Below the pieces are notes generated by a model. That model ran no database searches. It was not told the DNA's origin and saw only the letters and a program-made list of their open reading frames with translations. Of a stretch of 64,000 nt of DNA, positions 3,375-59,710 are shown one piece after another. Position numbers and translations under genes: made by a program. The stretch is from an uncultured Gammaproteobacteria bacterium (lineage in GTDB: Bacteria > Patescibacteriota > Microgenomatia > Levybacterales > UBA12049): assembly GCA_964490105.1 (NCBI GenBank), contig CAZAZU010000001.1, positions 498,361 through 562,360 of the forward strand, read 5' to 3'. Each line of letters begins with the position of its first letter. The first letter of the stretch is position 1.

Positions 3375-4421
3375 ATGCCCACAACTCTAAGTAAATTTAA
3401 GAGTCAGTTTTTAGTGGTGGCCAAATGGGCTGCAATTATAACTGGGATTCTCGTTGGAATTTTTGTTTTGATAAAAATAGCTTTTTTTGTAAAAGAGCTT
3501 ATTTCTCCTACTCCACCACCCCCGCCTACTGTTAGTTTTGGTAAATTACCTCCTATCTATTTCCCTGAGAGCATAAATAAAAAGTTTACATACTCGGTAG
3601 ACACTCTTAGTGGGGAACTCCCAACTCTACCAGACAGAACCAAAGTTTATGAAATGGAAAAACCAGGACCCGACATCCTAGCAGTACAAAGAGCAATCGA
3701 AAAAGTTTCCTCTGTGGGATTTACATCAAAGCCAGAGCAACTCTCAGACATACAATACCGCTGGACAAGTCTTGGTCCACCTGCGAAAAGTCTTGTTTTA
3801 AATGTAAACATGGCTTCGTTTACCCTATATTCTTCATACCTTACTGATCCTTTCGTTCTTTCTGGTGCTTCGCTTGGAAATGAGGAGGATGCAGTAAACA
3901 CTGCAAAAACGTTCTTAAATGCACTAAATCTTTACCCGGAAGATATTGATGATGATAAAACAAAGATAGAATTATTCTCAATTAACAACGAGGTATTGGG
4001 CCCGGCAGAAAGCTTATCTAGAGCAAAACTTATAAGTGTTTCGTTTTTTCAGAAAGATAAAGATGAAATAAAAATGGTTTATCCTGGGGGTAAAAATTCA
4101 ACCATGAATTTAGTAATCGGATCTGGTGACAGAGAATCTCTTGTTGTAAATGCAAGATTTTTTTATCAAAAAGCTACAGATAAATCCGCAACGTATCCAA
4201 TAAAAACTTCCCAAGAAGCATTTGAGGAATTGAAAAATGGTAAAGGAAGAATAGTCAGTCAAAAAGGTGACAGTTTAAATATTGTTATTAAAAATGTTTA
4301 CCTGGGATATTATTCAGAAGGAAAACAGCAGGATTACTTGATGCCTGTTATTGTTTTTGAAGGTACCAACGATTTTATTGCCTATATCTCTGCTGTTAAG
4401 GACGAATGGATAGATAAGTAA
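3375..4421 (+). CDS. hypothetical membrane-anchored extracytoplasmic protein
   Basis: N-terminal TM 'AAIITGILVGIFVLIKIAFFV' followed by a PPPPP linker. No catalytic motifs recognised. Confidence 0.45.
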   Translation: MPTTLSKFKSQFLVVAKWAAIITGILVGIFVLIKIAFFVKELISPTPPPPPTVSFGKLPPIYFPESINKKFTYSVDTLSGELPTLPDRTKVYEMEKPGPDILAVQRAIEKVSSVGFTSKPEQLSDIQYRWTSLGPPAKSLVLNVNMASFTLYSSYLTDPFVLSGASLGNEEDAVNTAKTFLNALNLYPEDIDDDKTKIELFSINNEVLGPAESLSRAKLISVSFFQKDKDEIKMVYPGGKNSTMNLVIGSGDRESLVVNARFFYQKATDKSATYPIKTSQEAFEELKNGKGRIVSQKGDSLNIVIKNVYLGYYSEGKQQDYLMPVIVFEGTNDFIAYISAVKDEWIDK

Positions 4422-5307
4422 TATTATTATCCAGATAATTAAGAAGTGTTTGTGTATCCCCAAATCTATCCTGGCTTTGCATAACTACAAATATTAAATC
4501 AGCATTTTCCGAAGGCAAATTTCGGGAAGTTACCAAAACCTGACCTGCCCCATCTGTAAAACCAGTTTTTACGCCGTTTACACCAGGAATATCAAGTAAT
4601 ATATTTATATTTTTTATAGTGTATTTTACGCCATCCAAACTTTGAATTTGTCGGCTTTTAGTAGAGACTACCTCTCTAAACTTAGGATCATTCATTGCAA
4701 TACTCGTAAGTCTTGCCAAATCAATTGCAGTGGTATAGTCTTTTTCGTCCAGCAATCCAATCGGTTCTTCAAAATAAGTATCGTGTAAGTTATACGCTTG
4801 TGCTTTTTCGTTCATTCTGGCTACGAATGCTTTTTCTCCCCCAGGATAATTTTCGGCAATTGCCTGCGTTGCATCATTTGAAGAAGGAAGCATCATGGCA
4901 TAAAGAAGATCTTCAAATGTAAATTCATAATTAAGCGGAAGCTTAAGCGTAGTTCCCTCTACATTCGATTTATAAATAGTCAAAGTGTCCGCTAATTTAT
5001 AGTATTCTAATGCGACGAGCGCAGTCATAATCTTAGTAGTAGAAGCAGGAGAAAACCTTAAATTAGGATTTTTTTCAAATAAAACCACTTGCGACTCTTT
5101 ATCAATTACTACAGCACCCTGAGCAGAAATTACTGGATACAAAGAGAAATTAACCTGAGGATACCTTGCAGGAAAAAATTCAATCGGACTCGTGAAAGTT
5201 CCAATTAACGAATTTTGTTTTTTTAGTTCTATATTTAGGAGTGCTAAAAAACTAAATGTTGCAAAAACGATTACTAGAGATATGAAGTAGAAGATCTTTA
5301 CTTTCAT
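4396..5307 (-). CDS. D-alanyl-D-alanine carboxypeptidase (serine peptidase S11, PBP5/6-like)
   Basis: N-terminal TM. SxxK 'STTK', SxN 'SSN' and KTG 'KTGFTDGAG' motifs are in the correct order. Confidence 0.8.
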   Translation of the reverse strand: MKVKIFYFISLVIVFATFSFLALLNIELKKQNSLIGTFTSPIEFFPARYPQVNFSLYPVISAQGAVVIDKESQVVLFEKNPNLRFSPASTTKIMTALVALEYYKLADTLTIYKSNVEGTTLKLPLNYEFTFEDLLYAMMLPSSNDATQAIAENYPGGEKAFVARMNEKAQAYNLHDTYFEEPIGLLDEKDYTTAIDLARLTSIAMNDPKFREVVSTKSRQIQSLDGVKYTIKNINILLDIPGVNGVKTGFTDGAGQVLVTSRNLPSENADLIFVVMQSQDRFGDTQTLLNYLDNNITYLSIRP

Positions 5308-5312
5308 CCATT

Positions 5313-6737
5313 TTACTTTGTGACGATTTTAATTCCTAGTTCTTTTAGTTGATCTTCTGAAACAGGAGCTGGGGCGTCCATTACAGAAGTTCTCCCAGTT
5401 GAAGTCATCGGAAATGCCATTGCCTCCTTTATAGACTCTTCACCTTTTAAGAGCGCTATATGACGATCAAGTCCCAGCGCGATTCCTCCATGAGGAGGAG
5501 CACCAAATGAAAATGCTTCAAGCATATGCCCGATACTTTCATTTATTTCCTCATCTGAATAACCCATAATCTTATAAGTAGCTCTGAGTATTTCAGGGGT
5601 ATGTGCCCTCACACTTCCTCCACCTGCCTCAAGTCCATTACAAACTAAATCATATTGCGTAGTCATAATCTCTTGGATGTTTTCGCCTTTCATTAAATTA
5701 TCCAAGTGCTCTGGGAGAGGCATGCTAAAAGGATTATGGGTAAAAGTCCATTCGCTCTTACTATCCAAACTATCTGAGATTTCAGTCTTACTTACTTTCC
5801 TGAAGAATGGGAAATTTATAACCCAAGCAAATGCAAGTGTCCCGTCTTTCTTTTCTTCTTCTGTCCTTAAATCAAATTTATCCGCTCCATATTTCGAAAT
5901 CGCTTCCGTATAAGTAATTACTGGAAATTTTTCATCTTTTAATTTTCCGCCAACTGCTTTAACTGCGTCCTTAACTGCGCTTTCAGTTGTCTCCATAACG
6001 TCTTCTCGAGTTGCAAAACTCATCTCAAGATCTAACTGCGCGAACTCAAATCCTCTGTCTGCTCTTAAATCTTCATCCCTAAAACATTTTGGAAATTGGA
6101 AATATCTTTCAAATCCCGCCACCATCAGAAGCTGCTTATATTGCTGGGGTGATTGGGGTAGTGCATAAAATTTCCCCGGCTGAAAACGGGATGGAACTAT
6201 AAAGTCTCTCGCACCTTCCATAGTAGCCTTGGAAAGCACCGGTGTTTCTATCTCTACAAAATCTTTCTTGATCAAAGACTGGCGGAGCGCCTGCATGTAG
6301 TCACTCCTTAGTCTTATGTTGTCCTGCATTCTTGGCCGTCTTAAATCAAGATATCTATATTTCAAACGAACTTCTTCATTGATATCCAAACCATCACTTG
6401 TAACATCAAAGGGTGGGGTCTCTGATTTAGCTAGAATCTTTACATCTAAAACCTCAAGCTCTACAGTTCCAGTTAAAAGATCCTTATTAATATTTTTTTC
6501 GGGTCTAGCATTAATTTTTCCGGTAATTTCTACTACAAATTCTGGCCTTAATTCCCCGGCTTTAGTATGTGCTTCAGGAGAACTGCTTGGGATAACTACT
6601 GCCTGGATTTTTCCTGATCTATCCCTAAGATCTAAGAAGATTAATTTCCCATGATCGCGTCTTATATCTACCCAACCCTGTATTAAAACTTCTTCGCCAA
6701 CCTTACTAACAGTATCTTTTATGAGTGTTCTTTGCAT
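5313..6737 (-). CDS. aspS: aspartate--tRNA ligase, short form lacking GAD insertion
   Basis: Class II motif 2 'FRDEDLRADRGFEFAQLDLEMSF', preceded by 'QSPQQYKQLLMVAGFERYFQ' as in AspRS (not AsnRS). 474 aa. Confidence 0.85.
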   Translation of the reverse strand: MQRTLIKDTVSKVGEEVLIQGWVDIRRDHGKLIFLDLRDRSGKIQAVVIPSSSPEAHTKAGELRPEFVVEITGKINARPEKNINKDLLTGTVELEVLDVKILAKSETPPFDVTSDGLDINEEVRLKYRYLDLRRPRMQDNIRLRSDYMQALRQSLIKKDFVEIETPVLSKATMEGARDFIVPSRFQPGKFYALPQSPQQYKQLLMVAGFERYFQFPKCFRDEDLRADRGFEFAQLDLEMSFATREDVMETTESAVKDAVKAVGGKLKDEKFPVITYTEAISKYGADKFDLRTEEEKKDGTLAFAWVINFPFFRKVSKTEISDSLDSKSEWTFTHNPFSMPLPEHLDNLMKGENIQEIMTTQYDLVCNGLEAGGGSVRAHTPEILRATYKIMGYSDEEINESIGHMLEAFSFGAPPHGGIALGLDRHIALLKGEESIKEAMAFPMTSTGRTSVMDAPAPVSEDQLKELGIKIVTK

Positions 6738-6814
6738 ATGTGTATTTTAATATTTTGCCCAAAGCTACACAAGCCTCAATTGACTACTACTATAAGCTAT
6801 GCTAAAATCCCGCT

Positions 6815-8440
6815 ATGACAAGAGCTGAAGGCACACCAACCGGACAAACAGGGAAGAAAATTGGCGAAGGATCTGCTTTGCGTGTAGATTTGTCTAAAGA
6901 AGGACCTGGTAAAAGGACAAAACCCCCAACAACCTTACAAGAAGATCCCCACCTAAGACATAAATACGTTCCCTTAATGCAGGGCGAAACTTTTCCGTTT
7001 GATATTAGATTTGCGAGACCATATCAGCAGCGACAAGCTGACAGCAGTACCCCCTTCGAACCCCGTTTCGCATGGGCAGCTGCTCTTGCACATTCTCCAG
7101 AACTTCGTGAAGAATTCCTAGCTCATAGAACAGAATACAGGACTGCTATGGGAAATGTTTTACAACTTTTAGATATTACGGATGCAAGAGAAATTCCAAG
7201 AGCATTCGACGCAAGAGGGAAAGCTGCAAAAATAGTCGATATCAACAGAGCTATTGGGAGATTGTATTCACCGCAAACTGAAGGAAGAAGAGCACCAAAA
7301 GACTCTCGAAAAGCTAAAACAGTTGAAGATTATGCAAAATCTGCTGACACCTTCATTAGCGGTCTTCGATTAAACGATGGAATATTAAATCCCATCGCAT
7401 ACAAAATTCGTCCCTCAGAAGAGGCAGTAAGTAGATCAAATCCGTATGAACTTCTGGAGCTTGCGTTTACTCCAGGAAATTCACCAAAGCTTGGTTTTGA
7501 AGCGCTCAGAAAACTATTTCTTGGAACTAAAATTGCTGCAGTCGATGCTGTATCTGCGGAACTCGAAGAAGGAGATACATATAGAAAGTTTACTGATTTA
7601 CTCGATAAGTTAGTCTGGGATCAGGAACATCCTAAGGGATATACAGAAGATGTAGTCTTATTAAGTAAACACGATATGGAAACCTACGACGTTCTTTATG
7701 AATTAATGGATGGAACATTAGTTACATTTGATAAAATACCTGATGCAGAGCGAGAAACAGCAAAACCTGCAATCGCTGAAGTCCCAGCAAATGAAAAGGA
7801 TGCTATTGAAACTGCGGTAAGAAAAAGCGATCCTGATCAAATGGGGCACCATCTTAGATTAACCACTCTGCAATCCAGATTATTTAAACATAACGGTGTT
7901 TCACATCATGCTTTTGTAGATAAAAGACAGAAAAAGTTTCATTCATGGGTCATGAAAATGCTTCGTAAAGGTGAGGACGAACCAACAGTGGCGGTCGAAG
8001 ATAGAATTGGAATGATGCTTGTTGTTAAAGATACCGAAGAAGCTGACATGCTTGTGGAACAACTTCAGATGGCAGGCAGAAGAACTGGAAGCATACTTCT
8101 TCCAGAAGGCATAGAAGATAATCTCAAAAGAAAAGGAAAAAAGAAAAAGTACAGTGCAAAAAACGCAGGAAGCTCGAATGAGACAGAAATGATGAAATTC
8201 TATGCAAGGGTGCACGGAATGAGAATCGAAGTTATAATCCATACACATGAGTCTTACCTTAATTATCAGTATTCAGATAGGACTGGTCATGATGATTTTG
8301 AAATCAAGAGATTTTTCGACAGTGGGCTCTTTCAACTTCTCTTTCCACAATCAATCTACCCCGAGGTAAATCCTGAAGAAGATAGAGAATATCTATTGGA
8401 AGAAAAACGCAGAGCGAAAAGAACACAAAGAATTGGTTAA
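6815..8440 (+). CDS. GC-rich protein of unknown function with C-terminal RelA/SpoT-like nucleotidyltransferase (alarmone-synthetase fold) region
   Basis: Residues ~375-505 align by eye to the Rel synthetase core (layout in the matching finding), with the catalytic Asp and Glu positions present. GC is about 45-48 percent versus about 35 percent in neighbouring aspS. TTGACT-17nt-TAAAAT sits 6 nt upstream of the ATG. Confidence 0.5.
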   Translation: MTRAEGTPTGQTGKKIGEGSALRVDLSKEGPGKRTKPPTTLQEDPHLRHKYVPLMQGETFPFDIRFARPYQQRQADSSTPFEPRFAWAAALAHSPELREEFLAHRTEYRTAMGNVLQLLDITDAREIPRAFDARGKAAKIVDINRAIGRLYSPQTEGRRAPKDSRKAKTVEDYAKSADTFISGLRLNDGILNPIAYKIRPSEEAVSRSNPYELLELAFTPGNSPKLGFEALRKLFLGTKIAAVDAVSAELEEGDTYRKFTDLLDKLVWDQEHPKGYTEDVVLLSKHDMETYDVLYELMDGTLVTFDKIPDAERETAKPAIAEVPANEKDAIETAVRKSDPDQMGHHLRLTTLQSRLFKHNGVSHHAFVDKRQKKFHSWVMKMLRKGEDEPTVAVEDRIGMMLVVKDTEEADMLVEQLQMAGRRTGSILLPEGIEDNLKRKGKKKKYSAKNAGSSNETEMMKFYARVHGMRIEVIIHTHESYLNYQYSDRTGHDDFEIKRFFDSGLFQLLFPQSIYPEVNPEEDREYLLEEKRRAKRTQRIG

Positions 8441-10095
8441 TTCCTCTTCAGGTCTTTAATTTTTAGCTCTATTTTTTTATTTCCATTCCACTCATTTAAT
8501 TCAATCGAATAAACGACGTCCACTAAATCTCCAATTTTTAGATCCAGATTTTTATCAAAGTTAAATAAAATTCCGCTGATCTTAATTTCATCTTTGCTAA
8601 ACTCAAGCTTAACGTGTTTGCTTTCTTTTCCTACAAACTTCATCGCTGCGATTTCCAAACTCTTACTTAAAAAAACTGGTGCGGGATTTTTCATTCCAAA
8701 AGGTTCAAGTTTTAATAATTCTTCATACAGATCTAAATTAACTAACTCAATCGGCAGTTCGCAATCAATTTTTAATTTTCGAATTAAATGATCACTTGAG
8801 ATTAATTTTTCTGCGAGTTCTTCAAGCTTCTTCTCCAGAAGCTCCAGTTTTTTTGTTTCTACTGTAAAACCTGCCGCCATAGGATGTCCGCCGGCATCTA
8901 CTAAAAATTCCGAAGCCTCCCTTATGAATTCGATAATATTAAGACCTGACACAGAACGCGCAGATGCTTTACTAAATTCTTCTCCCTTTGAAAGAACAAT
9001 TGAAGGTAAATAAAATTCCTCTGTTAAACGGCCTGCCACCAAACCGATAACTCCCGGCTGATAACTTTCATGATAAACAAATAATAGTTTTTTTGAAATT
9101 TTACCTGAAACCGCGTCTTTTGCATGCTCTACTGCTTGTGCTGTAATCTGCTGCCTATTTCTATTCGTTTCTCCAATTGTCCTAGCTAAATCTTTTGCTT
9201 TCTTAGCGTCTTTTGTACATAAAAGCCTCAAGCTATCCATCCCCTCTTCAAGACGCCCCATCGCATTTAGTCGGGGTGCAATAATATGTCCAATTTCATA
9301 AGTCCCTATTTTTTTAGGATCTAACGTCGCCTCTTCAAATAATGAAACCAGGCCAACCCTATCTGTATTTCTTAAAACAGGTAAGCCATTTTTTACAATT
9401 ATTCTATTAAATTCAGTTAGTGGAACTAAATCTGCGACAGTCGCAATTGTAACTAAATCTAAATGTTTCTTAAGATCTGTTTTTCCATTTATTTTTTCTT
9501 CTAAAAATCTGGAGAGAAACCACCCAACCGCTGATCCGCAGACTTTAGTTGAATGAACTATAGAATGTGCTTTTGGGAGTTTCTTAGAAGGGACGTGATG
9601 ATCTGTAATTATTACATCGATTCCTAAACTATTTGCAAATTCAGTTCCCTCAAATGCCACTATTCCGTTATCCACTGTTACAACCAATTTCGTATCTGGG
9701 AATTTCCCCATCATTCCTTCTACGCCTTTTTTTGATAGCCCATACCCCTCCGTTATTCTGTTGGGAATATACGGCATCACATTTGCTCCTAGTGTATTTA
9801 AAGATTCCCAAAGAATAGCAGCGCCAGTTATTCCATCAGCATCATAATCTCCAAAAACAATTATCAGCTCCTTTTTTTCTATCGCGGTTTTAATTCTTTT
9901 GAGAGTTTTTGTAAGATCAACTTTACTAATACCGAGAAGATTAATGTCTAAGTCAGATAGTTTTGGATCTAAGAATTTTTCAATTTCTTTTTTAGTTTTT
10001 ATCCCTCTATTCTCTAGAAGTAAACTTATCAAGTCATCAATTCTTAATTCATGATTCTTAATTCTTGATTCACTTAATAGGTCCCACTTTTTCAT
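8437..10095 (-). CDS. recJ: single-stranded-DNA-specific exonuclease RecJ
   Basis: DHH family motifs 'FGDYDADGITGAAIL' and 'VIITDHHVPSK', plus a C-terminal OB-like domain. 552 aa. Confidence 0.85.
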   Translation of the reverse strand: MKKWDLLSESRIKNHELRIDDLISLLLENRGIKTKKEIEKFLDPKLSDLDINLLGISKVDLTKTLKRIKTAIEKKELIIVFGDYDADGITGAAILWESLNTLGANVMPYIPNRITEGYGLSKKGVEGMMGKFPDTKLVVTVDNGIVAFEGTEFANSLGIDVIITDHHVPSKKLPKAHSIVHSTKVCGSAVGWFLSRFLEEKINGKTDLKKHLDLVTIATVADLVPLTEFNRIIVKNGLPVLRNTDRVGLVSLFEEATLDPKKIGTYEIGHIIAPRLNAMGRLEEGMDSLRLLCTKDAKKAKDLARTIGETNRNRQQITAQAVEHAKDAVSGKISKKLLFVYHESYQPGVIGLVAGRLTEEFYLPSIVLSKGEEFSKASARSVSGLNIIEFIREASEFLVDAGGHPMAAGFTVETKKLELLEKKLEELAEKLISSDHLIRKLKIDCELPIELVNLDLYEELLKLEPFGMKNPAPVFLSKSLEIAAMKFVGKESKHVKLEFSKDEIKISGILFNFDKNLDLKIGDLVDVVYSIELNEWNGNKKIELKIKDLKRN

Positions 10096-13729: not shown

Positions 13730-14635
13730 TTATTCTTTCTTCGCTCTCTTAAGACTCCACTCGTGCCAGACTACAAGAATTGGTGTGGCATTAAATATAG
13801 AGGAATAAGTTCCTGAAATCATTCCGATTATTAGAGCGACCACAAACCAGCGAATACTTTCTCCCCCAAATAAAAGTAATGCGAAAAGAACTAATAGAAC
13901 AGTGATTGAATTATTTAAAGATCTTCCAATTGTTTGAACTATAGAATCATTTGCAACTTTAGCAAAATTCCCTCCCCCATTTTTTTCAAGATTTTCACGC
14001 ATTCTATCAAACACGACAATCGTATCGTGAACGGAAAATCCGATTACCGTAAGAAGCGCTGTAACAAAAAGACTATCAATTTCTACATTTAAGAAATGCC
14101 CTAGGATAGAGAATATTCCGACAACAACTAAAACATCATGCACTAAAGCTACAATTGCTGATATTCCAAAACGGATTGAACTAGCAGGCTTTGGAACTTT
14201 CCTGAAAACTAGAGATATATAAACAACAACAAGAAGAGATGCTACCACCACCGCTTTTAATGCATTTATGGTCGTTTCTTTTCCAATAGTTGGCCCGATC
14301 GTCGAAAACTCCTGCTGCTTTGCATTTTTATATTCTGCCGAAAGATCCTTTACGAATTCGTTGTTCTTTTTTTGATCAATCTCCTCGGTTCTAATAATTG
14401 CTAATTTATTTGAAGTTTCAATTACAGAAACTTTTATATCCTTTTCTTCAAGTGTTTTTCTTAAGAAATCTTTCTGCTCACCTGTAACCTCAGTTGGAAA
14501 TAAGACAGACATCCTAGATCCGCCTGTAAATTCAATTGATAGATTCAATCCATAAAGAACAAGAGAAACTAAACCTGGGACCATTACCAGAAGTGAAATT
14601 GCAAACCATATTTTTTTTCTGCCGATTATATTCAT
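13730..14635 (-). CDS. secF: protein translocase subunit SecF
   Basis: N-terminal 'KKIWFAISLLVMVPGLVSLVLYGLNLSIEFTGGS' and a C-terminal 6-TM RND-like domain. It lies immediately downstream of secD. Confidence 0.85.
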   Translation of the reverse strand: MNIIGRKKIWFAISLLVMVPGLVSLVLYGLNLSIEFTGGSRMSVLFPTEVTGEQKDFLRKTLEEKDIKVSVIETSNKLAIIRTEEIDQKKNNEFVKDLSAEYKNAKQQEFSTIGPTIGKETTINALKAVVVASLLVVVYISLVFRKVPKPASSIRFGISAIVALVHDVLVVVGIFSILGHFLNVEIDSLFVTALLTVIGFSVHDTIVVFDRMRENLEKNGGGNFAKVANDSIVQTIGRSLNNSITVLLVLFALLLFGGESIRWFVVALIIGMISGTYSSIFNATPILVVWHEWSLKRAKKE

Positions 14636-14636
14636 A

Positions 14637-15983
14637 TTATCTGTATGCTAGTTTTAATAATGTTTTTGTAACTGTTATCGCTGAGAACATAGAAACTACA
14701 ACTCCTATTGCCAAGATCAATGCAAAACCTCTCACGATTCCTGTACCAAAACTGTATAAAATTATACAGGTTATTATTGTTGAAACATTTGAATCTCTTA
14801 TTGACATCCAGGCATTCGAAAATCCTAAATCAATTGCCGAAGACTTACTCTTACCCTGCCTCATCTCTTCTTTAATTCTTTCAAAAATAAGAATGTTGGC
14901 GTCAACAGCCATACCAATTGAGAGAATTAAACCTGCGACGCCTGCGAGCGTCAAGGTAATTCCATAGGGAGTTAAGCTGCTTAATTTAAATATTGCCAAA
15001 TTGAAAAGTGTATATAGGAGCAGCGCCACACTAGCTATCACTCCAAGCCTTCCATAAAGAGAAACCATAAATACTACAACTGTTATAAAACCGATAACTC
15101 CAGCTATTAAACTTTTTCGAAGCGATTCCTGACCCAGGGTTGGCCCCACCACATGCTGCTCTAAAACTGTAAGCTTTACTGGAAGCGCTCCTGCGTTAAG
15201 TTGTGTACTTAGCGCTTTTGCTTGTTCCTGCGTAAATCCTCCAGAAATTATAGCGTCTCCTGTTAAAATGACATCGCTAACTGTTGGGGCTGTTAATATC
15301 ATATTATCCAAAACAATAGCTACCGGCTGCTGTAAATTTCTTTCCGTTATTTTTCCAAATTTTTCTTTCCCTTTTGAATCAAACAATAACTGCACCACAG
15401 GAGAACCAGTATTAGGGTCGAATGAAACAACAGCTGAGCTCAGATCTGATCCTGACAAATCCGTCTTCTTAAGAGGTCCGATCCCAGATTCATCAGCATT
15501 AATTGGATACTCACCTGATGCCATAACATCAGCTGCAACAGAAGCAGTCGGCTCCCAGAATGTAAGCTGTGCAGTTGAACCAATAAGATTAATCGCCTGA
15601 CTTACGTCGGTTACTCCAGGAAGCTCGACGATAATCCTTGAATCGTTATTAACCTTTGCAGTCTGGATTAAAGGTTCAGACACTCCAAATAAATTTATGC
15701 GTCTCTCAATTACCTCCCTAGCACTCTCAAGTGCCTGCTCTCGCTCCCCAGCTGGCAATTTCTCAACTTCAGCTTTAAAATTCAGACTTACTCCACCTTT
15801 TAAATCAAGCCCTTGTCTAAAAGAAATTTCCTTTGGAATATTTAGCCTTTGAAGAACGAAATTAGAATCATATTTAATGTCTTTAGTAAACCCCGGCAGA
15901 CTAATTCTACCCGGAAGATTCACAAAGGCAGCTAAAAGCGTCAAAACTAGTATAAAAGCAAAAAGGAGCCTGGGATTTTTCAT
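14637..15983 (-). CDS. secD: protein translocase subunit SecD
   Basis: N-terminal TM, periplasmic domain with 'LGLDLKGGVSL', and a C-terminal 6-TM bundle. 448 aa. Confidence 0.85.
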   Translation of the reverse strand: MKNPRLLFAFILVLTLLAAFVNLPGRISLPGFTKDIKYDSNFVLQRLNIPKEISFRQGLDLKGGVSLNFKAEVEKLPAGEREQALESAREVIERRINLFGVSEPLIQTAKVNNDSRIIVELPGVTDVSQAINLIGSTAQLTFWEPTASVAADVMASGEYPINADESGIGPLKKTDLSGSDLSSAVVSFDPNTGSPVVQLLFDSKGKEKFGKITERNLQQPVAIVLDNMILTAPTVSDVILTGDAIISGGFTQEQAKALSTQLNAGALPVKLTVLEQHVVGPTLGQESLRKSLIAGVIGFITVVVFMVSLYGRLGVIASVALLLYTLFNLAIFKLSSLTPYGITLTLAGVAGLILSIGMAVDANILIFERIKEEMRQGKSKSSAIDLGFSNAWMSIRDSNVSTIITCIILYSFGTGIVRGFALILAIGVVVSMFSAITVTKTLLKLAYR

Positions 15984-54841: not shown

Positions 54842-57800
54842 ATGGCAGCTCAAAGAATTGAAAGCACAGGATCACATCCAGAAGCAGATAATCTTCCAAA
54901 TAATGGGTCTCATCTGCAGATTGATCGTGGATTAACTCAACTTGAATTAGGCTTATCAACAGCCCCTGTTCTCGGAGAAAATGGAACCCCAGGAGCAGAA
55001 GATGAAAGAATTAATAGTGGAAAGCGAGAAGAAGTATTACAAGCCTTTGCGCGCCAATTCGAAGCATTTAGAGAGGCTCCTGATACTGTCCTGGAAGACT
55101 GGGAAGCAGCAGAAAGAGGCGAAATGGCTGAAATATTGGACACGGGAAAGGTTGATTTCGCAAATGGAGTAGATTCTTTCAGAGAAAACGGACGCACAAG
55201 AAGACTTCCTATCCAGGCTTTTATGAACTTCGTTGCTGTTAAGGCTGATGAGGATGAGCAAGTTGAAAATGATAGAAGAATTCTTGAAAAATATAGCAGG
55301 TCTCCTATCTCAACTATCAGAGGAGATGGCCAGATCAGCAGACAAACACACAGGCAGTTAGCTGATGAAGCAGCCCAAGCAACCCAGGACAGAAGAAGCG
55401 CAGTAAGAAGAGCCCAAACAGGAGTGCGCTGGTTCTATCCGCCTAAAAATGCAGACATAAACAACACCACTCCTGAAGCTTCGCAACCGCAAGATTTATC
55501 GGGTGCAATGCAAATCTTTGAAGAAGCTCTTCGGAGATATAGACATGCCAACAGTCCGATTGATAAAAAAACGGCAAAAAGAGAACTTGATTTAATCACC
55601 AGGCAAATGGGAGATTTAACAGGGGACACGGCTGCTGTAAAAGAATTCCTAGAGGCGAGAAGAGAAGAAGCACGAAAATCAGGAAAAGCGGATCGAGGAA
55701 CGGCATCCAAACTGGAAATACGAGCATCAAAGTTAAGAATAGAACGAGCAGCAGACAGATTATATGAATTGGAAGATTTAAGAAGTAATGAACCAATTAT
55801 TCTGGGGAATTCACCAAGCTCGGATATATCAGATCGCGGCTCTGACCTTCCAAGCGAAACTGCTGAAGAAATTATAACCACTCCTTGGCTTACTTCAATG
55901 ATTGAAACTCAAGTAAGACAGGATGATGCTCCTTGGGGTAAACCTAAACTACCTGGTAATGTGACAGTAACCACAGAGAATGCTCTCGAAAAAATTAAAA
56001 CTCCACTTAGGCTTTCTGGAGGCTTAAATCCTGGAGAAAAAAAGGGCTATAGCCAACCTCAAGCTTCTCAAATTATTAGAAAAGCTGGAGAAGAACTATA
56101 TCGTAGTTATAAAAAGACATGGGATGAAGTATCGAAATTGAGAGCAGATAGCGATTCTAAGGTTACATCAAAGTCTGATCCTATTACTTCTTCAGCGCAC
56201 GATTTTACACCACCATCTTATACTTCTGTAGATTGGTCTAAAACAGATAATGCGAGAGAGGTATGGGAGGCTCAATTCAGAGAGGCAGTAAAAGCAGAGG
56301 AAAAACTACCTGCGCTACCTATACCCATAAGCGCTGCTGATCAACTTCAAGCTGATGAAGACGCAGAAAGAGCCAGAAAAACTGCGGAAGACGATAAAAG
56401 ACGCGCCGCAAGAACAGCTATTGATGACGCTAGACGTTTAGGACAACCGATTCCAGAAGTAGATGAAAAGGGGTTTTTGGTTGACCCTACCTTAAAACCT
56501 GATGAAGATTTATTTCCTGAGCATGATTACACCCCTCCACCTCCATATGTATCCATTGATTGGTCTCAGACAGAAAAGGAAAGACAAAACTGGGAATTTA
56601 AATTTCAATTATTAAATGACATTGCTAGCTGGGATCAAGGAGATATAGGAAGTGAAGATAGTGGAATTCCCCCCGTCGAAACCGTTCCTCCAGTTGCAGA
56701 AAAAGAGAACGTAAAGTTTAATATTATATTTACATCGCTTGACCCAGCATATGATCAAGAAGCAGAAAAATGGGCAGAACAAAAACTTCAACAAGAACTA
56801 ACTCCAACTAAAGGCAGACTAGGAAAAATTAGAAGTATAAGAAGAGTTGCAGCGACCAGAATCACAGAAGAAGGTAAAAGACTAAAATATACTAAAGCAT
56901 ATAAAGAGACTTTGGTAAAAGCAGGTAATCCATATGCGCAAATCGATATAAAAACAGGAGAAGTAACAGATGCAGATCAGGATAGAGACAAATTTGATGC
57001 ATCAGTTCAGGCCACACTTAGAGGACTTGACATAAACCCAGAGCAGTTCGTTGCAAGAAAAGCAACTATCGATGAAAAATTACAAGAAAAGATTAGTTTC
57101 GAACTATATGGATATGCGGCTGGAAAATTAAGCCCAGCGGAAATTGAGGAAAGATTTGCGAGATTCACTAAAGCTAATTCTGTGGACTTAAGAAAATATT
57201 TCGGAAAGGATTTAGATTCTAGTGATTTTATGGCTGGATTTAATTCAAATTTGATTCAAAAACTTGGAGAAATTAGAGAAGCGATTGATCATGGAGTAAT
57301 AACCCTTGATCAAGTGGACTTTAACGTAGGATTTGCAATTCCAAGATGGGGGACAGAAACTCAGGCAGAACTTACCAGAAGAGATAAATTAATAAAAGGC
57401 GCACAAAAAAGAAGGAAAACTGGAGTTTTAGCGAATCCGCTGGTCTTAGGAGGAGGAGCATCGATAGGAACTAGTTTGGCTTGGGGAGCTGCTGGCTGGG
57501 GAGCTAGATCTGTAGCGCCAGTTGTAGGAATTCTACCTGGAGCATTAATCGGAGGATGGAACGCAAAAGCCAGAAGAAGCTATGATCTAAAAAGAGACAG
57601 AGCAACTTTTGAAAAGGATCAAGCATCAGGAGTTAAGGTTACATCTGATCAACCAAGAAGATTAGCATTGGACAGTTTTTCGAGAAGAAAGACTTCGACT
57701 AGACAGCTTAATTATGGAGTAAGCAACTTAATCAGCCGTGATTTATCAAACAATCCATTTTTATCAGATAAAAGAAAAGAACAAAACGAAAAAGCCCTAC

Positions 57801-59710
57801 AAGCATTAATTAGCAGAATTGCTGAAATAGACGTTAGAAGAAAATTAGGAATTAGCGAGCAAACAGATCATGTAATGTACTCTTCAGAAAAAGTAATCCA
57901 GCAGGAAAAACTTGCACTTGAAGAACTAAGACTAAAAGCCATTGAAGCTGTCAGGTTTTCAGGTATAAGTCATGAAGACTATCAAAGAATCTTAGGTGAA
58001 AAAACAAGAAAATGGGAAAACTTTTTAGCTCGAACTAGTAAGGCACAGGATAAAAAGTTTGATAAATATAGAACTCGTGAAAGCAGAAAAGCATTCGTGG
58101 AAGGAGCTGTTAAGGGAGCAGTTGGAGCAGGTGTAATAGCAGCCGGAACTACTGGAATCAGAATGGCATCTGATGCACTGGGAATCGATGTAGTTGGAGG
58201 AGTAAGAAATATAATTGATGAAAGAATTAGATATATAAGAGGAGAGATAAATGAACTTTCAAGCAAACCACAAGGAGTTCCAAACGAACAACCAGTTAAA
58301 TTAGCAATGGATGGCCACTATTCCAACGGACATCAAGTTTTTGACTCAATGCTAAATATTGATTCAGCAACTGCGACTGATACTGAAGTTGCGGTTTTCG
58401 CACAAGAAGCTCCATTAAATTTTTATGATACAAAATTAGATGGCAAAACAATTAGTATTCCAGAACACACTAGATTAGTCATGGACAGAATTAACGGTGG
58501 GTATGATTTAGTTTCAAGTCGTGATGGCACAACAGTTCTACTTGATGACGTCCGTTGGGAAGAAGGAAAACTAGTTGCTAATCCAAATAGTCTTTGGGCC
58601 GATAAAATCACAGCTGAAACCTCTACAACGCCTGATATGAGAAGAGTTTTGGGAAAAAATGGAGTTTGGAAAGAAATGGCCACGCCGATTAAAGATATTG
58701 ATTGGGATCCGAATGGAACTCCTGGAAAATATGATAAAGATGAATTAGGAATATTTAACAAACGCGATGGAGACGCAGTGGTATTTAGAATTCCTAGTTC
58801 CTCAAATGGATTTTTCTTAAATATAAACGGCGATAGAGTTTGGCTACCAGAAACTAGAGATGGAATCGTAAGGCTTGATCCTGATTCTAAAAAACTCATC
58901 CCTGGAAGACATGACGGAATGACTTATGGAGATGTTGCAAGAATAGCAATTGATCAGGAGGAGCTTAGAAAATATCACGGAAGTCTTCAAACTGAAGTTC
59001 ATACCGAGAGAAGAGAAATATTTAGAGTTGACGCTATCGAAGCGGGAACATTTAGAAATGGTAGAGCTACAATCCATGCAACCATTTTAGGATGTGGTGA
59101 AACTCCAAAAGAAATTAAAATGGGAACAGTTACAAATAGTGTTACTAAAATATTAGCAGGTGAACTTCCCGAACCAGTAGAACCAATTGATCCAACTCCT
59201 GGGCCTACTCAAACATCAAACCCAACAACTACTCCGACTGCTTCACCAGAACCGACAAAATCACCCTGGATAACGCCAAGAACTACTCCGGAGCCAACTC
59301 CTGACCCAACACCAAGGCCTGCTCCTACACCTGAACCAGCTATTCCTACTGGAAGCGGGTTTACATTTGAATGGCCAGACCTAAGTAATATCAACATCCC
59401 GCCAACCATAGCAACTCCAATGGCTAGAAGATATCCATTAGAAAGTGTTTATGCAGCTACAACAAGACCAACTCCAATTTATCCTGCTGTTTTACCGCCT
59501 ACTACTCCGCCATTAGCGTCGACTCCACATGCTAGCCCGAGATTTATGGCTAGAAGATATGGCGATCAGATGAGTCGCGGACTAACAGATGAGGAAAAAG
59601 GGAAAATTGCACTTTATGCTAATGAGGGGAATTCAGATCAAGAAATTGCGAATAAGCTTAATATTCCGCTAAGTCAAGTTCGGCATGTTAGATACGGAAG
59701 AAATAATTAA
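54842..59710 (+). CDS. giant (1622 aa) GC-rich protein with internal repeats, Gly-rich TM segments, Pro/Thr linker and C-terminal LuxR/GerE-type HTH
   Basis: The ORF is continuous with about 45-50 percent GC. Evidence from the sequence:
- Repeats 'DFTPPSYTSVDWSKT...' and 'DYTPPPPYVSIDWSQT...'.
- Gly-rich hydrophobic 'LANPLVLGGGASIGTSLAWGAAGWGA' and 'GAVKGAVGAGVIAAGTTG'.
- Linker 'PTPGPTQTSNPTTTPTASPEPTKSP...'.
- C-terminal 'LTDEEKGKIALYANEGNSDQEIANKLNIPLSQVRHV'.
- TTGCTA-17nt-TATAAT sits 11 nt upstream of the ATG. Confidence 0.6.
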   Translation: MAAQRIESTGSHPEADNLPNNGSHLQIDRGLTQLELGLSTAPVLGENGTPGAEDERINSGKREEVLQAFARQFEAFREAPDTVLEDWEAAERGEMAEILDTGKVDFANGVDSFRENGRTRRLPIQAFMNFVAVKADEDEQVENDRRILEKYSRSPISTIRGDGQISRQTHRQLADEAAQATQDRRSAVRRAQTGVRWFYPPKNADINNTTPEASQPQDLSGAMQIFEEALRRYRHANSPIDKKTAKRELDLITRQMGDLTGDTAAVKEFLEARREEARKSGKADRGTASKLEIRASKLRIERAADRLYELEDLRSNEPIILGNSPSSDISDRGSDLPSETAEEIITTPWLTSMIETQVRQDDAPWGKPKLPGNVTVTTENALEKIKTPLRLSGGLNPGEKKGYSQPQASQIIRKAGEELYRSYKKTWDEVSKLRADSDSKVTSKSDPITSSAHDFTPPSYTSVDWSKTDNAREVWEAQFREAVKAEEKLPALPIPISAADQLQADEDAERARKTAEDDKRRAARTAIDDARRLGQPIPEVDEKGFLVDPTLKPDEDLFPEHDYTPPPPYVSIDWSQTEKERQNWEFKFQLLNDIASWDQGDIGSEDSGIPPVETVPPVAEKENVKFNIIFTSLDPAYDQEAEKWAEQKLQQELTPTKGRLGKIRSIRRVAATRITEEGKRLKYTKAYKETLVKAGNPYAQIDIKTGEVTDADQDRDKFDASVQATLRGLDINPEQFVARKATIDEKLQEKISFELYGYAAGKLSPAEIEERFARFTKANSVDLRKYFGKDLDSSDFMAGFNSNLIQKLGEIREAIDHGVITLDQVDFNVGFAIPRWGTETQAELTRRDKLIKGAQKRRKTGVLANPLVLGGGASIGTSLAWGAAGWGARSVAPVVGILPGALIGGWNAKARRSYDLKRDRATFEKDQASGVKVTSDQPRRLALDSFSRRKTSTRQLNYGVSNLISRDLSNNPFLSDKRKEQNEKALQALISRIAEIDVRRKLGISEQTDHVMYSSEKVIQQEKLALEELRLKAIEAVRFSGISHEDYQRILGEKTRKWENFLARTSKAQDKKFDKYRTRESRKAFVEGAVKGAVGAGVIAAGTTGIRMASDALGIDVVGGVRNIIDERIRYIRGEINELSSKPQGVPNEQPVKLAMDGHYSNGHQVFDSMLNIDSATATDTEVAVFAQEAPLNFYDTKLDGKTISIPEHTRLVMDRINGGYDLVSSRDGTTVLLDDVRWEEGKLVANPNSLWADKITAETSTTPDMRRVLGKNGVWKEMATPIKDIDWDPNGTPGKYDKDELGIFNKRDGDAVVFRIPSSSNGFFLNINGDRVWLPETRDGIVRLDPDSKKLIPGRHDGMTYGDVARIAIDQEELRKYHGSLQTEVHTERREIFRVDAIEAGTFRNGRATIHATILGCGETPKEIKMGTVTNSVTKILAGELPEPVEPIDPTPGPTQTSNPTTTPTASPEPTKSPWITPRTTPEPTPDPTPRPAPTPEPAIPTGSGFTFEWPDLSNINIPPTIATPMARRYPLESVYAATTRPTPIYPAVLPPTTPPLASTPHASPRFMARRYGDQMSRGLTDEEKGKIALYANEGNSDQEIANKLNIPLSQVRHVRYGRNN

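Follow-up and report, generated by a model that had tools for sequence, protein, structure and literature searches.

What is encoded by the lone plus-strand gene that separates aspS from recJ in contig CAZAZU010000001.1, and does it make a nucleotide signal, a toxin or something else? The gene and its product, both called T hereafter, lie in a window of 64,000 nt (the whole stretch of DNA analysed, to which all coordinates refer). The list of open reading frames (ORFs) places a complete coding sequence of 541 codons plus stop at 6815..8440 (+), the sole gene between the minus-strand aspS and recJ, in agreement with the original prediction made from the letters of the DNA. That prediction also proposed a C-terminal RelA/SpoT-type core, possibly of a toxSAS toxin or defence effector, on a horizontally acquired island. 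We find that the C-terminal region very likely has the synthetase fold of RelA/SpoT homologues (RSH). As to what T does, comparative sequence evidence gives an even chance that it is a housekeeping, highly divergent RSH pyrophosphokinase devoid of the C-terminal regulatory domains, making a nucleotide alarmone and located in the chromosomal slot of rel.

Standard searches return almost nothing for T taken alone. Pfam gives no RelA_SpoT match even at E ≤ 10, its sole match being TetR_C_31 (E 0.26); there is no PADLOC match, and the PDB sequence match is at chance level only (E 1.2). NCBIfam yields weak local matches to TIGR04552 and TIGR04562 (E 6e-4, residues 356-418), with scores of 19.3 and 18.9 bits that fall below the curated cutoffs of 125 and 140 bits. 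A word-indexed homologue search recovered four proteins (100, 86, 65 and 42% identity) even with a 65-sequence profile, and an exhaustive hidden Markov model (HMM) search of 1.84 billion cluster representatives returned 211 clusters at E ≤ 1e-3, 142 of them at E ≤ 1e-10. The family thus gathered has a typical length of 430-500 aa, with conserved parts at approximately residues 105-290 and 345-535 of T. It is covered neither by Pfam nor by NCBIfam, its members are left hypothetical by standard annotation (Pfam, NCBIfam, PADLOC) and our literature searches found no description of it. In what follows, domain scans consider 85 relatives, conservation counts consider 65 sequences of about 25% identity, and neighbourhoods were compared across 67 loci.

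At the family level, residues 344-519 (7844..8371, +) emerge as an RSH synthetase-type nucleotidyl/pyrophosphotransferase domain, with four kinds of evidence falling on the same region. Pfam RelA_SpoT (PF04607) matches 10 of the 85 relatives at E ≤ 0.01 (best E 3.8e-5, profile positions 1-96 of 113), so that a kinship detectable by this HMM holds for the family and fails for T as a single sequence. Searching 177,635 PDB sequences with the family profile returned Staphylococcus aureus RelP/YwaC as the sole match (E 0.006), with the RxKxxxSxxxK and D..G motifs aligned. An hhalign comparison of residues 341-541 with the SYNTH domain of ten long RSHs gave E 3.5e-4 and a score of 31.9; 20 column shuffles scored 8.8-18.2, all at E ≥ 0.06, and cross-domain controls were null. 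This signal needed the ten-sequence RSH alignment, given that nothing was returned against the single E. coli RelA sequence.

The fourth line is structural. A template-free AlphaFold model built on the 65-sequence alignment reached a mean predicted local distance difference test (pLDDT) of 87.2 and a predicted template modelling score (pTM) of 0.85, to be compared with a pLDDT of only 43 with a 4-sequence alignment, and the RSH-type alpha/beta synthetase fold is present in the predicted model. The top 19 Foldseek matches in the PDB are all RSH (probability up to 0.99), comprising the N-terminal regions of Rel from S. aureus, B. subtilis, T. thermophilus and S. equisimilis along with SpoT, CapRel and FaRel2, and GrpB and Pol-beta-type nucleotidyltransferases ranked below every one of them. 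The best viral matches (BFVD) are phage RelA/SpoT and Tas1-like proteins (best E 7.5e-4). The C-terminal RelA/SpoT-type core is therefore upheld for approximately residues 344-519 by family profile, hhalign, structure and motif register.

The three peptide strings originally aligned by eye with the synthetase core are found at residues 375-386, 394-417 and 469-499, and conservation across the family singles out the residues expected of a catalytic site. K373, K381, D396, E472 and P511 are invariant; R355, R371, G399, K461, T477 and R499 are conserved in at least 90% of the sequences, and R384, K385, G452-S453-S454 and H492 in 83-89%. The stretch R371-x-K373-xxx-S377-xxx-K381 (7925..7957, +; R371 in 61 of 65) is the RSH RxKxxxSxxxK ATP-phosphate-binding motif and aligns with RelA GRPKHIYSIWRKM, SpoT GREKHLYSIYCKM and RelP SRVKSFESIVNKL. 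D396-xx-G399 (8000..8011, +) is the counterpart of the RSH DxxGxR strand that provides the Mg2+-binding Asp, with the Asp kept in 65/65, the Gly in 64/65 and the Arg mostly turned into Met (position 401). E472-V-I-I-H-T477 (8228..8245, +) corresponds to ExQIRT with its catalytic Glu (E472 in 65/65, T477 in 59/65), and most members read ExIxHT for ExQxRT, Q having become I and R having become H. The conservation claimed for the DxxGxR Asp and the ExQIRT Glu is thus confirmed. The canonical acceptor-binding G-loop GYxSxH is absent from T: in its place stands K-Y446-S-A-K-N-A-G452-S-S...K461, a family-specific loop and strand (Y446...G452-S453-S454...K461; 8150..8197, +) in which position 446 is aromatic in 52 of 65 members and G452, S453, S454 and K461 are conserved in 54-61.

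These motifs come into register once the E. coli RelA and SpoT sequences join the family alignment: R371/K373/S377/K381 falls on GRPKHIYSIWRKM, D396 pairs with the Asp in FDVRAVR, E472 with the Glu in VEIQIRT and H492 with AAHW, which bears out the motif-level match to RSH synthetases seen by the original prediction. RelA D275 and E335, the classical sites of catalytic-dead mutations, occupy the D396 and E472 positions. The register indicates that the donor (ATP) side is conserved in the family; judging from the alignment, the acceptor side is not, and its pocket appears to have been rebuilt. In common with the PF04607 SYNTH domain and with RelP/RelQ, T shows the predicted fold and, in register, RxKxxxSxxxK, the DxxGxR Asp, the ExQxRT Glu and Thr and the downstream His. 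It differs from them in scoring below the Pfam gathering score, in the exchanges just described (GYxSxH to Y...GSS...K, R to M, Q/R to I/H) and in carrying an N-terminal extension of about 340 aa, unlike a single-domain small alarmone synthetase (SAS). A weaker and local likeness over RxK...D..G links T to TIGR04552 and TIGR04562, uncharacterised profiles of about 350 aa matched by 17-18 of the 85 relatives (best E 8e-6), which are probably sister RSH-like families, although scores of about 19-25 bits stay far from the cutoffs of 125-140 and both length and N-terminal region differ.

Ahead of the catalytic domain the protein divides in two. Residues 1-85 (6815..7069, +) form a variable N-terminal tail, probably disordered (pLDDT 35-69 by 10-residue block, with 86 at residues 51-60), which is poorly conserved and differs in length from member to member. 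Residues 86-343 (7070..7843, +) form a family-specific, mainly helical domain (10-residue block pLDDT 82-98; 11 helices plus short strands) carrying RFEA(K/L)RKL (F228 E229 A230 R232 K233) and LLSxH (S284, H286), of which E229, A230, R232, K233 and H286 each occur in 90% or more of the sequences. No Pfam, NCBIfam or PDB sequence match was found for this domain, and the absence of a recognisable N-terminal domain noted originally extends over approximately 340 aa (Pfam, NCBIfam, hhalign). Pfam HD_4 has no match in the 85 members. Foldseek alignments to Rel N-terminal regions run for 413-476 columns, across both hydrolase and synthetase domains, and this feature of the model gives a hint of a pseudo-hydrolase origin; a recognisable HD hydrolase was rejected, there being no profile signal and a structural hint only. 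At the other end, T stops 22 residues past the catalytic domain with a single helix (520-537), and since no TGS or ACT Pfam matches occur in T or in the 85 relatives, the C-terminal regulatory domains of long RSHs are absent.

The gene was originally seen as a foreign island with a GC content of 45-48%. T measures 40.2% overall and reaches 43-46% in its first ~400 nt only, compared with 35.9% for the window and 39.6% for aspS. Its GC at third codon positions (GC3) is 27.5%, with 26-31% in the neighbours and a mean of 25.8% for window ORFs. Considering 61 window ORFs as reference, T stands at z=+1.5 for GC, z=+0.6 for GC3 (hence no anomaly in codon usage) and z=+2.1 for its summed Gly, Ala, Arg and Pro content (G+A+R+P, 27.5%). 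The GC excess resides in codon positions 1-2 and thus reflects amino-acid composition, not foreign codon usage.

Synteny and selection lead to the same conclusion. Ten loci share the gene order gltX-orf348-dac-aspS-T-recJ-cca-...-yqeY-secF-secD (the window, L001, L002, L086, L023, L053, L100, L101, L102 and L103), where T orthologues range from 86% down to 24-33% identity. The two anchors, aspS (5313..6737, −; Pfam tRNA-synt_2 on the syntenic orthologue) and recJ (8437..10095, −; Pfam DHH, DHHA1 and RecJ_OB on the orthologue), adjoin T in 10/10 of them. Relative to the L001 orthologue (86%), the ratio of nonsynonymous to synonymous substitution rates (dN/dS) is 0.062 for T, 0.056 for aspS and 0.112 for recJ; relative to the L002 orthologue, T gives 0.104. 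At larger distance T diverges faster than its neighbours (in L053, 33% identity for T vs 76% for aspS) and keeps every catalytic residue. In a rough neighbour-joining tree the small-genome T sequences form deep long branches, apart from a compact proteobacterial clade, which argues against recent import, and tblastn found no T homologue in 72,556 plasmid and 50,697 phage records. T is best read as a core gene passed down vertically in a low-GC lineage with small genomes, and the horizontal acquisition originally suggested is rejected on composition, dN/dS and synteny.

The position of T within this conserved block is itself informative. In Listeria the order is secDF-(lapA-like)-recJ-apt-rel-dtd-(amidase)-hisS-aspS; in Vescimonas it is recJ-rel-dtd and in Tsukamurella secF-apt-rel. 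Read along the minus strand, the window presents secD (14637-15983) and secF (13730-14635; together 13730..15983, −, identified by Pfam), four plus-strand genes (yqeY, two ABC genes and cca), recJ, T and aspS. The Terrabacteria-type neighbourhood secDF-recJ-[ ]-aspS is therefore matched, and T alone separates recJ from aspS, in the slot of rel in Listeria, in inverted orientation and with apt, dtd and hisS missing from the cluster. By our own estimate, the chance of a random gene falling in the rel slot is about 1-in-750 (~750 genes in a genome of ~785 kb). This location favours a Rel-like housekeeping role for T, be it a descendant of Rel or a gene that took the place of rel in situ, and no canonical RSH was found in the 186 kb made up by the window and the syntenic loci. 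The likeness to long RSHs (Rel, RelA, SpoT) goes beyond the slot downstream of secDF: they are the best structural matches of T and, as in T, a helical domain precedes the synthetase domain. In contrast with them, T has no TGS, ACT or ZFD, its N-terminal domain has neither an HD motif nor hydrolase profile similarity, and both its inversion and the reduced cluster set the locus apart.

Relatives elsewhere add two further leads. Fusions of about 730 aa, in which a T module is followed by phosphoribosyltransferase (PRTase)-like and NUDIX modules at the C-terminal end, account for ~11 of the 150 representatives listed (P0069, P0076, P0080, P0081, P0085, P0086 and P0090 among them, as well as L087:8001-10196). 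Their phosphoribosyl pyrophosphate loop is degenerate, the NUDIX box is near-canonical in some members, and the P0080 fusion gene adjoins those for dihydrofolate reductase, dUTPase and thymidylate kinase. The ppGpp hydrolases known outside the RSH superfamily include a Nudix pyrophosphatase (PMC3153485). The NUDIX/PRTase fusions recall bifunctional Rel, which likewise combines a synthetase with a hydrolase, and point to a small nucleotide product. The second lead comes from members of Desulfobulbales, Desulfurivibrionaceae and Thiothrix, ~30% identical to T, whose neighbours include a NifV-like homocitrate synthase, modA/modC/modE (modABC), amtB-glnK, a NifA-like activator and a class-I glutamine amidotransferase (Desulfobulbales loci L007, L010, L017, L028, L029, L034, L045, L059, L073 and L079; Thiothrix loci L027, L033, L043, L062 and L076). 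In those sulfur-cycling bacteria, such neighbours suggest a connection with nitrogen or molybdenum status.

Taken together, these observations allow us to propose how T could work. The protein would consist of the disordered tail (1-85), the helical domain (86-343) and the RSH synthetase-type domain (344-519), with no TGS/ACT-type domains. The basic cluster of RxKxxxSxxxK (R371, K373 and K381, with R355 and R384/K385) would position the ATP triphosphate, D396 would bind Mg2+ and E472 would activate the acceptor hydroxyl. The beta,gamma-pyrophosphate of ATP would then pass to a nucleotide acceptor at its 3′-OH, and the product would be an alarmone resembling (p)ppGpp or (pp)pApp. T would most likely stand in for Rel, either as a hyper-diverged Rel descendant or as an in-situ replacement, and would be expressed as a near-leaderless mRNA, like most genes of the genome, from a strong and conserved promoter of its own. 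A more specific history is possible but falls well short of an even chance: T may be the in-situ, hyper-diverged descendant of a long RSH Rel in a candidate-phyla-like, Terrabacteria-related lineage, having lost the ribosome-sensing C-terminal domains and a recognisable hydrolase motif and serving as the only alarmone synthetase of that lineage, with the family later spreading to sulfur-cycling Proteobacteria and Desulfobacterota (nif/molybdate-linked) and being fused elsewhere to NUDIX/PRTase.

Several points weigh against an alarmone synthetase descended from Rel. T alone is below detection for PF04607, and the five relatives inspected individually score 14.6-22.1 bits, below the Pfam gathering score of 27 bits. 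The hhalign probability is only 37%, the best Foldseek E-value in the PDB is 4.4e-3, and the TM-scores are low (0.14-0.21 by query length). The N-terminal region compared with the RSH HD hydrolase domain gives an hhalign E of 0.35, that is, no sequence similarity. The acceptor-binding motifs of (p)ppGpp synthetases are not kept, so the product could be something else. T is inverted relative to recJ and aspS; Rel descent is not the sole route to the slot, considering that the family occurs in other contexts in Proteobacteria and Desulfobacterota; and our view covers 64 kb of a genome of ~785 kb, where a canonical Rel may be encoded elsewhere.

The detection limits just listed are also what would speak for a protein with no RSH kinship at all, namely some other nucleotidyltransferase-fold or unrelated protein with a chance motif match: T has no Pfam RelA_SpoT match, all profile matches are sub-threshold and no Foldseek PDB match reaches E ≤ 0.001. 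We regard this as highly improbable, since four independent lines (Pfam on relatives, the family profile against the PDB, hhalign with its shuffles and the template-free structure) converge on the same family, region and register, and GrpB and Pol-beta-type nucleotidyltransferases rank under every RSH match. Just as improbable is a catalytically dead RSH-like scaffold with a structural or regulatory role. The replacement of canonical residues (Met for the Arg of DxxGxR, Ile and His for the Gln and Arg of ExQxRT) would fit a pseudoenzyme, but pseudoenzymes normally lose exactly those catalytic residues that are kept here across 65 divergent sequences, in which the phosphate-binding Lys residues, the catalytic Glu and the Mg-binding Asp never vary and the Arg residues hardly do. 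The main alternative, in our opinion unlikely yet deserving attention, is an RSH-fold housekeeping pyrophosphokinase or nucleotidyltransferase with a non-classical acceptor, such as another metabolite, an RNA 3′ end (in a regulatory capacity) or a protein side chain. The retention of donor motifs next to the replacement of GYxSxH and of the Q/R of ExQxRT by Y...GSS...K and ExIxHT is what such an enzyme would display; the large N-terminal domain with its conserved E229, R232, K233 and H286 could add a substrate pocket, and the homocitrate synthase, modABC/modE, amtB-glnK and nifA-like neighbours in Desulfobulbales and Thiothrix hint at a metabolic link. Nevertheless, the NUDIX/PRTase fusions and the rel slot fit a nucleotide second messenger better, and the characterised RSH synthetase-fold enzymes all use a nucleotide or tRNA 3′-OH (PMC7229694).

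The toxSAS proposal of the original prediction has T as a toxin or anti-phage effector, acting by pyrophosphorylation of the tRNA CCA end or by a (pp)pApp flood and restrained by an antitoxin or, CapRel-like, by its own N-terminal domain. CapRel and FaRel2 are indeed among the structural matches (probability 0.96-0.99), the catalytic fold of toxSASs (FaRel2, CapRel, PhRel2) and of Tas1/APK-type (pp)pApp synthetases resembles that of T, and its extra domain might exert autoinhibition. A small ORF of 81-128 aa also lies between aspS and T in some orthologous loci (L001:5666-5947, L002:5554-5940, L086:2650-2928 and L023:5437-5682), just upstream of T, with a motif (M/L)GPY(V/R), a low-complexity C-terminus, its own sigma70-like promoter and no Pfam match. 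It occurs in 4/10 syntenic loci and is missing from the window (6738-6814), where T keeps every catalytic residue and where a repeated AGCCTCA seems to mark the junction of a deletion in the 77-bp aspS-T spacer. Being patchy and absent here, the ORF is dispensable and cannot be an obligatory antitoxin, for which it was rejected. toxSASs are defined by conserved bicistronic toxin-antitoxin-like operons (PMC7229694), and across the 67 loci we found no universally conserved neighbour, no shared two- or three-gene cluster and no conserved antitoxin candidate. Unlike toxSAS and Tas1 genes, T lacks a conserved antitoxin or immunity gene and is associated with neither mobile elements nor secretion systems. 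Purifying selection on this syntenic core gene is strong (dN/dS 0.06), its chromosomal position is fixed across deep divergence, and it does not show the patchy distribution of a mobile gene (no plasmid or phage copies, no PADLOC match). A toxin or defence effector is thus improbable.

The predicted promoter TTGACT-17-TAAAAT is present at 6772..6808 (+), with an upstream AGCCTCA (6772-6778), a −35 TTGACT (6780-6785), a −10 TAAAAT (6803-6808), a 17-nt spacer and, in addition to what had been described, a TG extended −10. It scores 10/12 with TG in a consensus scan and is the sole strong plus-strand match in the region. Given that the −10 element ends 6 nt before the ATG and no Shine-Dalgarno motif precedes T, the mRNA is probably leaderless, with the transcription start inferred. 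The promoter, including the spacer TACTACTATAAG and the upstream AGCCTCA, is kept in L001, L002 and L086 (86, 65 and 44% protein identity). Conservation of TACTACTATAAG and AGCCTCA goes beyond what the −35 and −10 need, so an operator for some regulator may overlap the promoter. The leaderless layout, once singled out as a peculiarity of T, was rejected as a special feature: the majority of first-in-operon genes in the window lack a Shine-Dalgarno motif and carry a −10-like hexamer (TATAAT/TAAAAT-like) whose end lies 5-9 nt ahead of the start (examples of such starts are 3194−, 3375+, 6737−, 10095−, 11581+, 23302−, 36079−, 41754+, 46096+ and 54842+), and leaderless mRNAs seem to be the rule in this organism. 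Shine-Dalgarno-like motifs in the window are found mainly at internal operon genes.

Other features of the window and of its syntenic counterparts were noted along the way. The T stop (8438-8440) overlaps that of the convergent recJ (8437-8439), and the 3′ end of the gene for a 348-aa protein (3375-4421, +) overlaps the convergent S11 peptidase gene (4396-5307, −) by 26 nt, both overlaps indicating a very compact genome. The 348-aa protein has an N-terminal hydrophobic helix and no Pfam domain, and is conserved in L001, L002, L102 and L103 among the syntenic loci. A 1622-aa ORF (54842-59710, +) presents the top G+A+R+P content of the window (30%), 40.3% GC, a strong positive AT skew and no significant Pfam domain. 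In L023 (contig CAZIDK010000004.1) aspS is 36% identical to that of the window, recJ 56% and cca 65%, and aspS may have been replaced in that lineage by an aspartyl-tRNA synthetase (AspRS) of a different type. The secDF...recJ...aspS order, the DUF3048 and DUF4446 genes and the short AspRS are Firmicutes- or candidate-phyla-like, which makes the NCBI label 'uncultured Gammaproteobacteria bacterium' doubtful for the two metagenome-assembled genomes of L004 and L023, in which this syntenic block occurs.

As RSH-fold enzymes, T and its ~211 cluster-level relatives would constitute a deep, unclassified branch of a superfamily central to stress physiology, toxin-antitoxin biology and phage defence. 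Core-gene status and the rel slot make it testable whether reduced-genome bacteria that seemingly have no RelA/SpoT keep a stringent-response-like signal, and which nucleotide carries it. The rebuilt acceptor pocket suggested by the alignment, the NUDIX/PRTase fusions and the nif/mod neighbourhoods are leads to a possibly new product or regulatory link. Should T indeed be a hyper-diverged Rel, organisms scored as RelA/SpoT-less by standard HMMs would nonetheless have alarmone signalling, its synthetase having a rebuilt acceptor site and possibly forming a new product.

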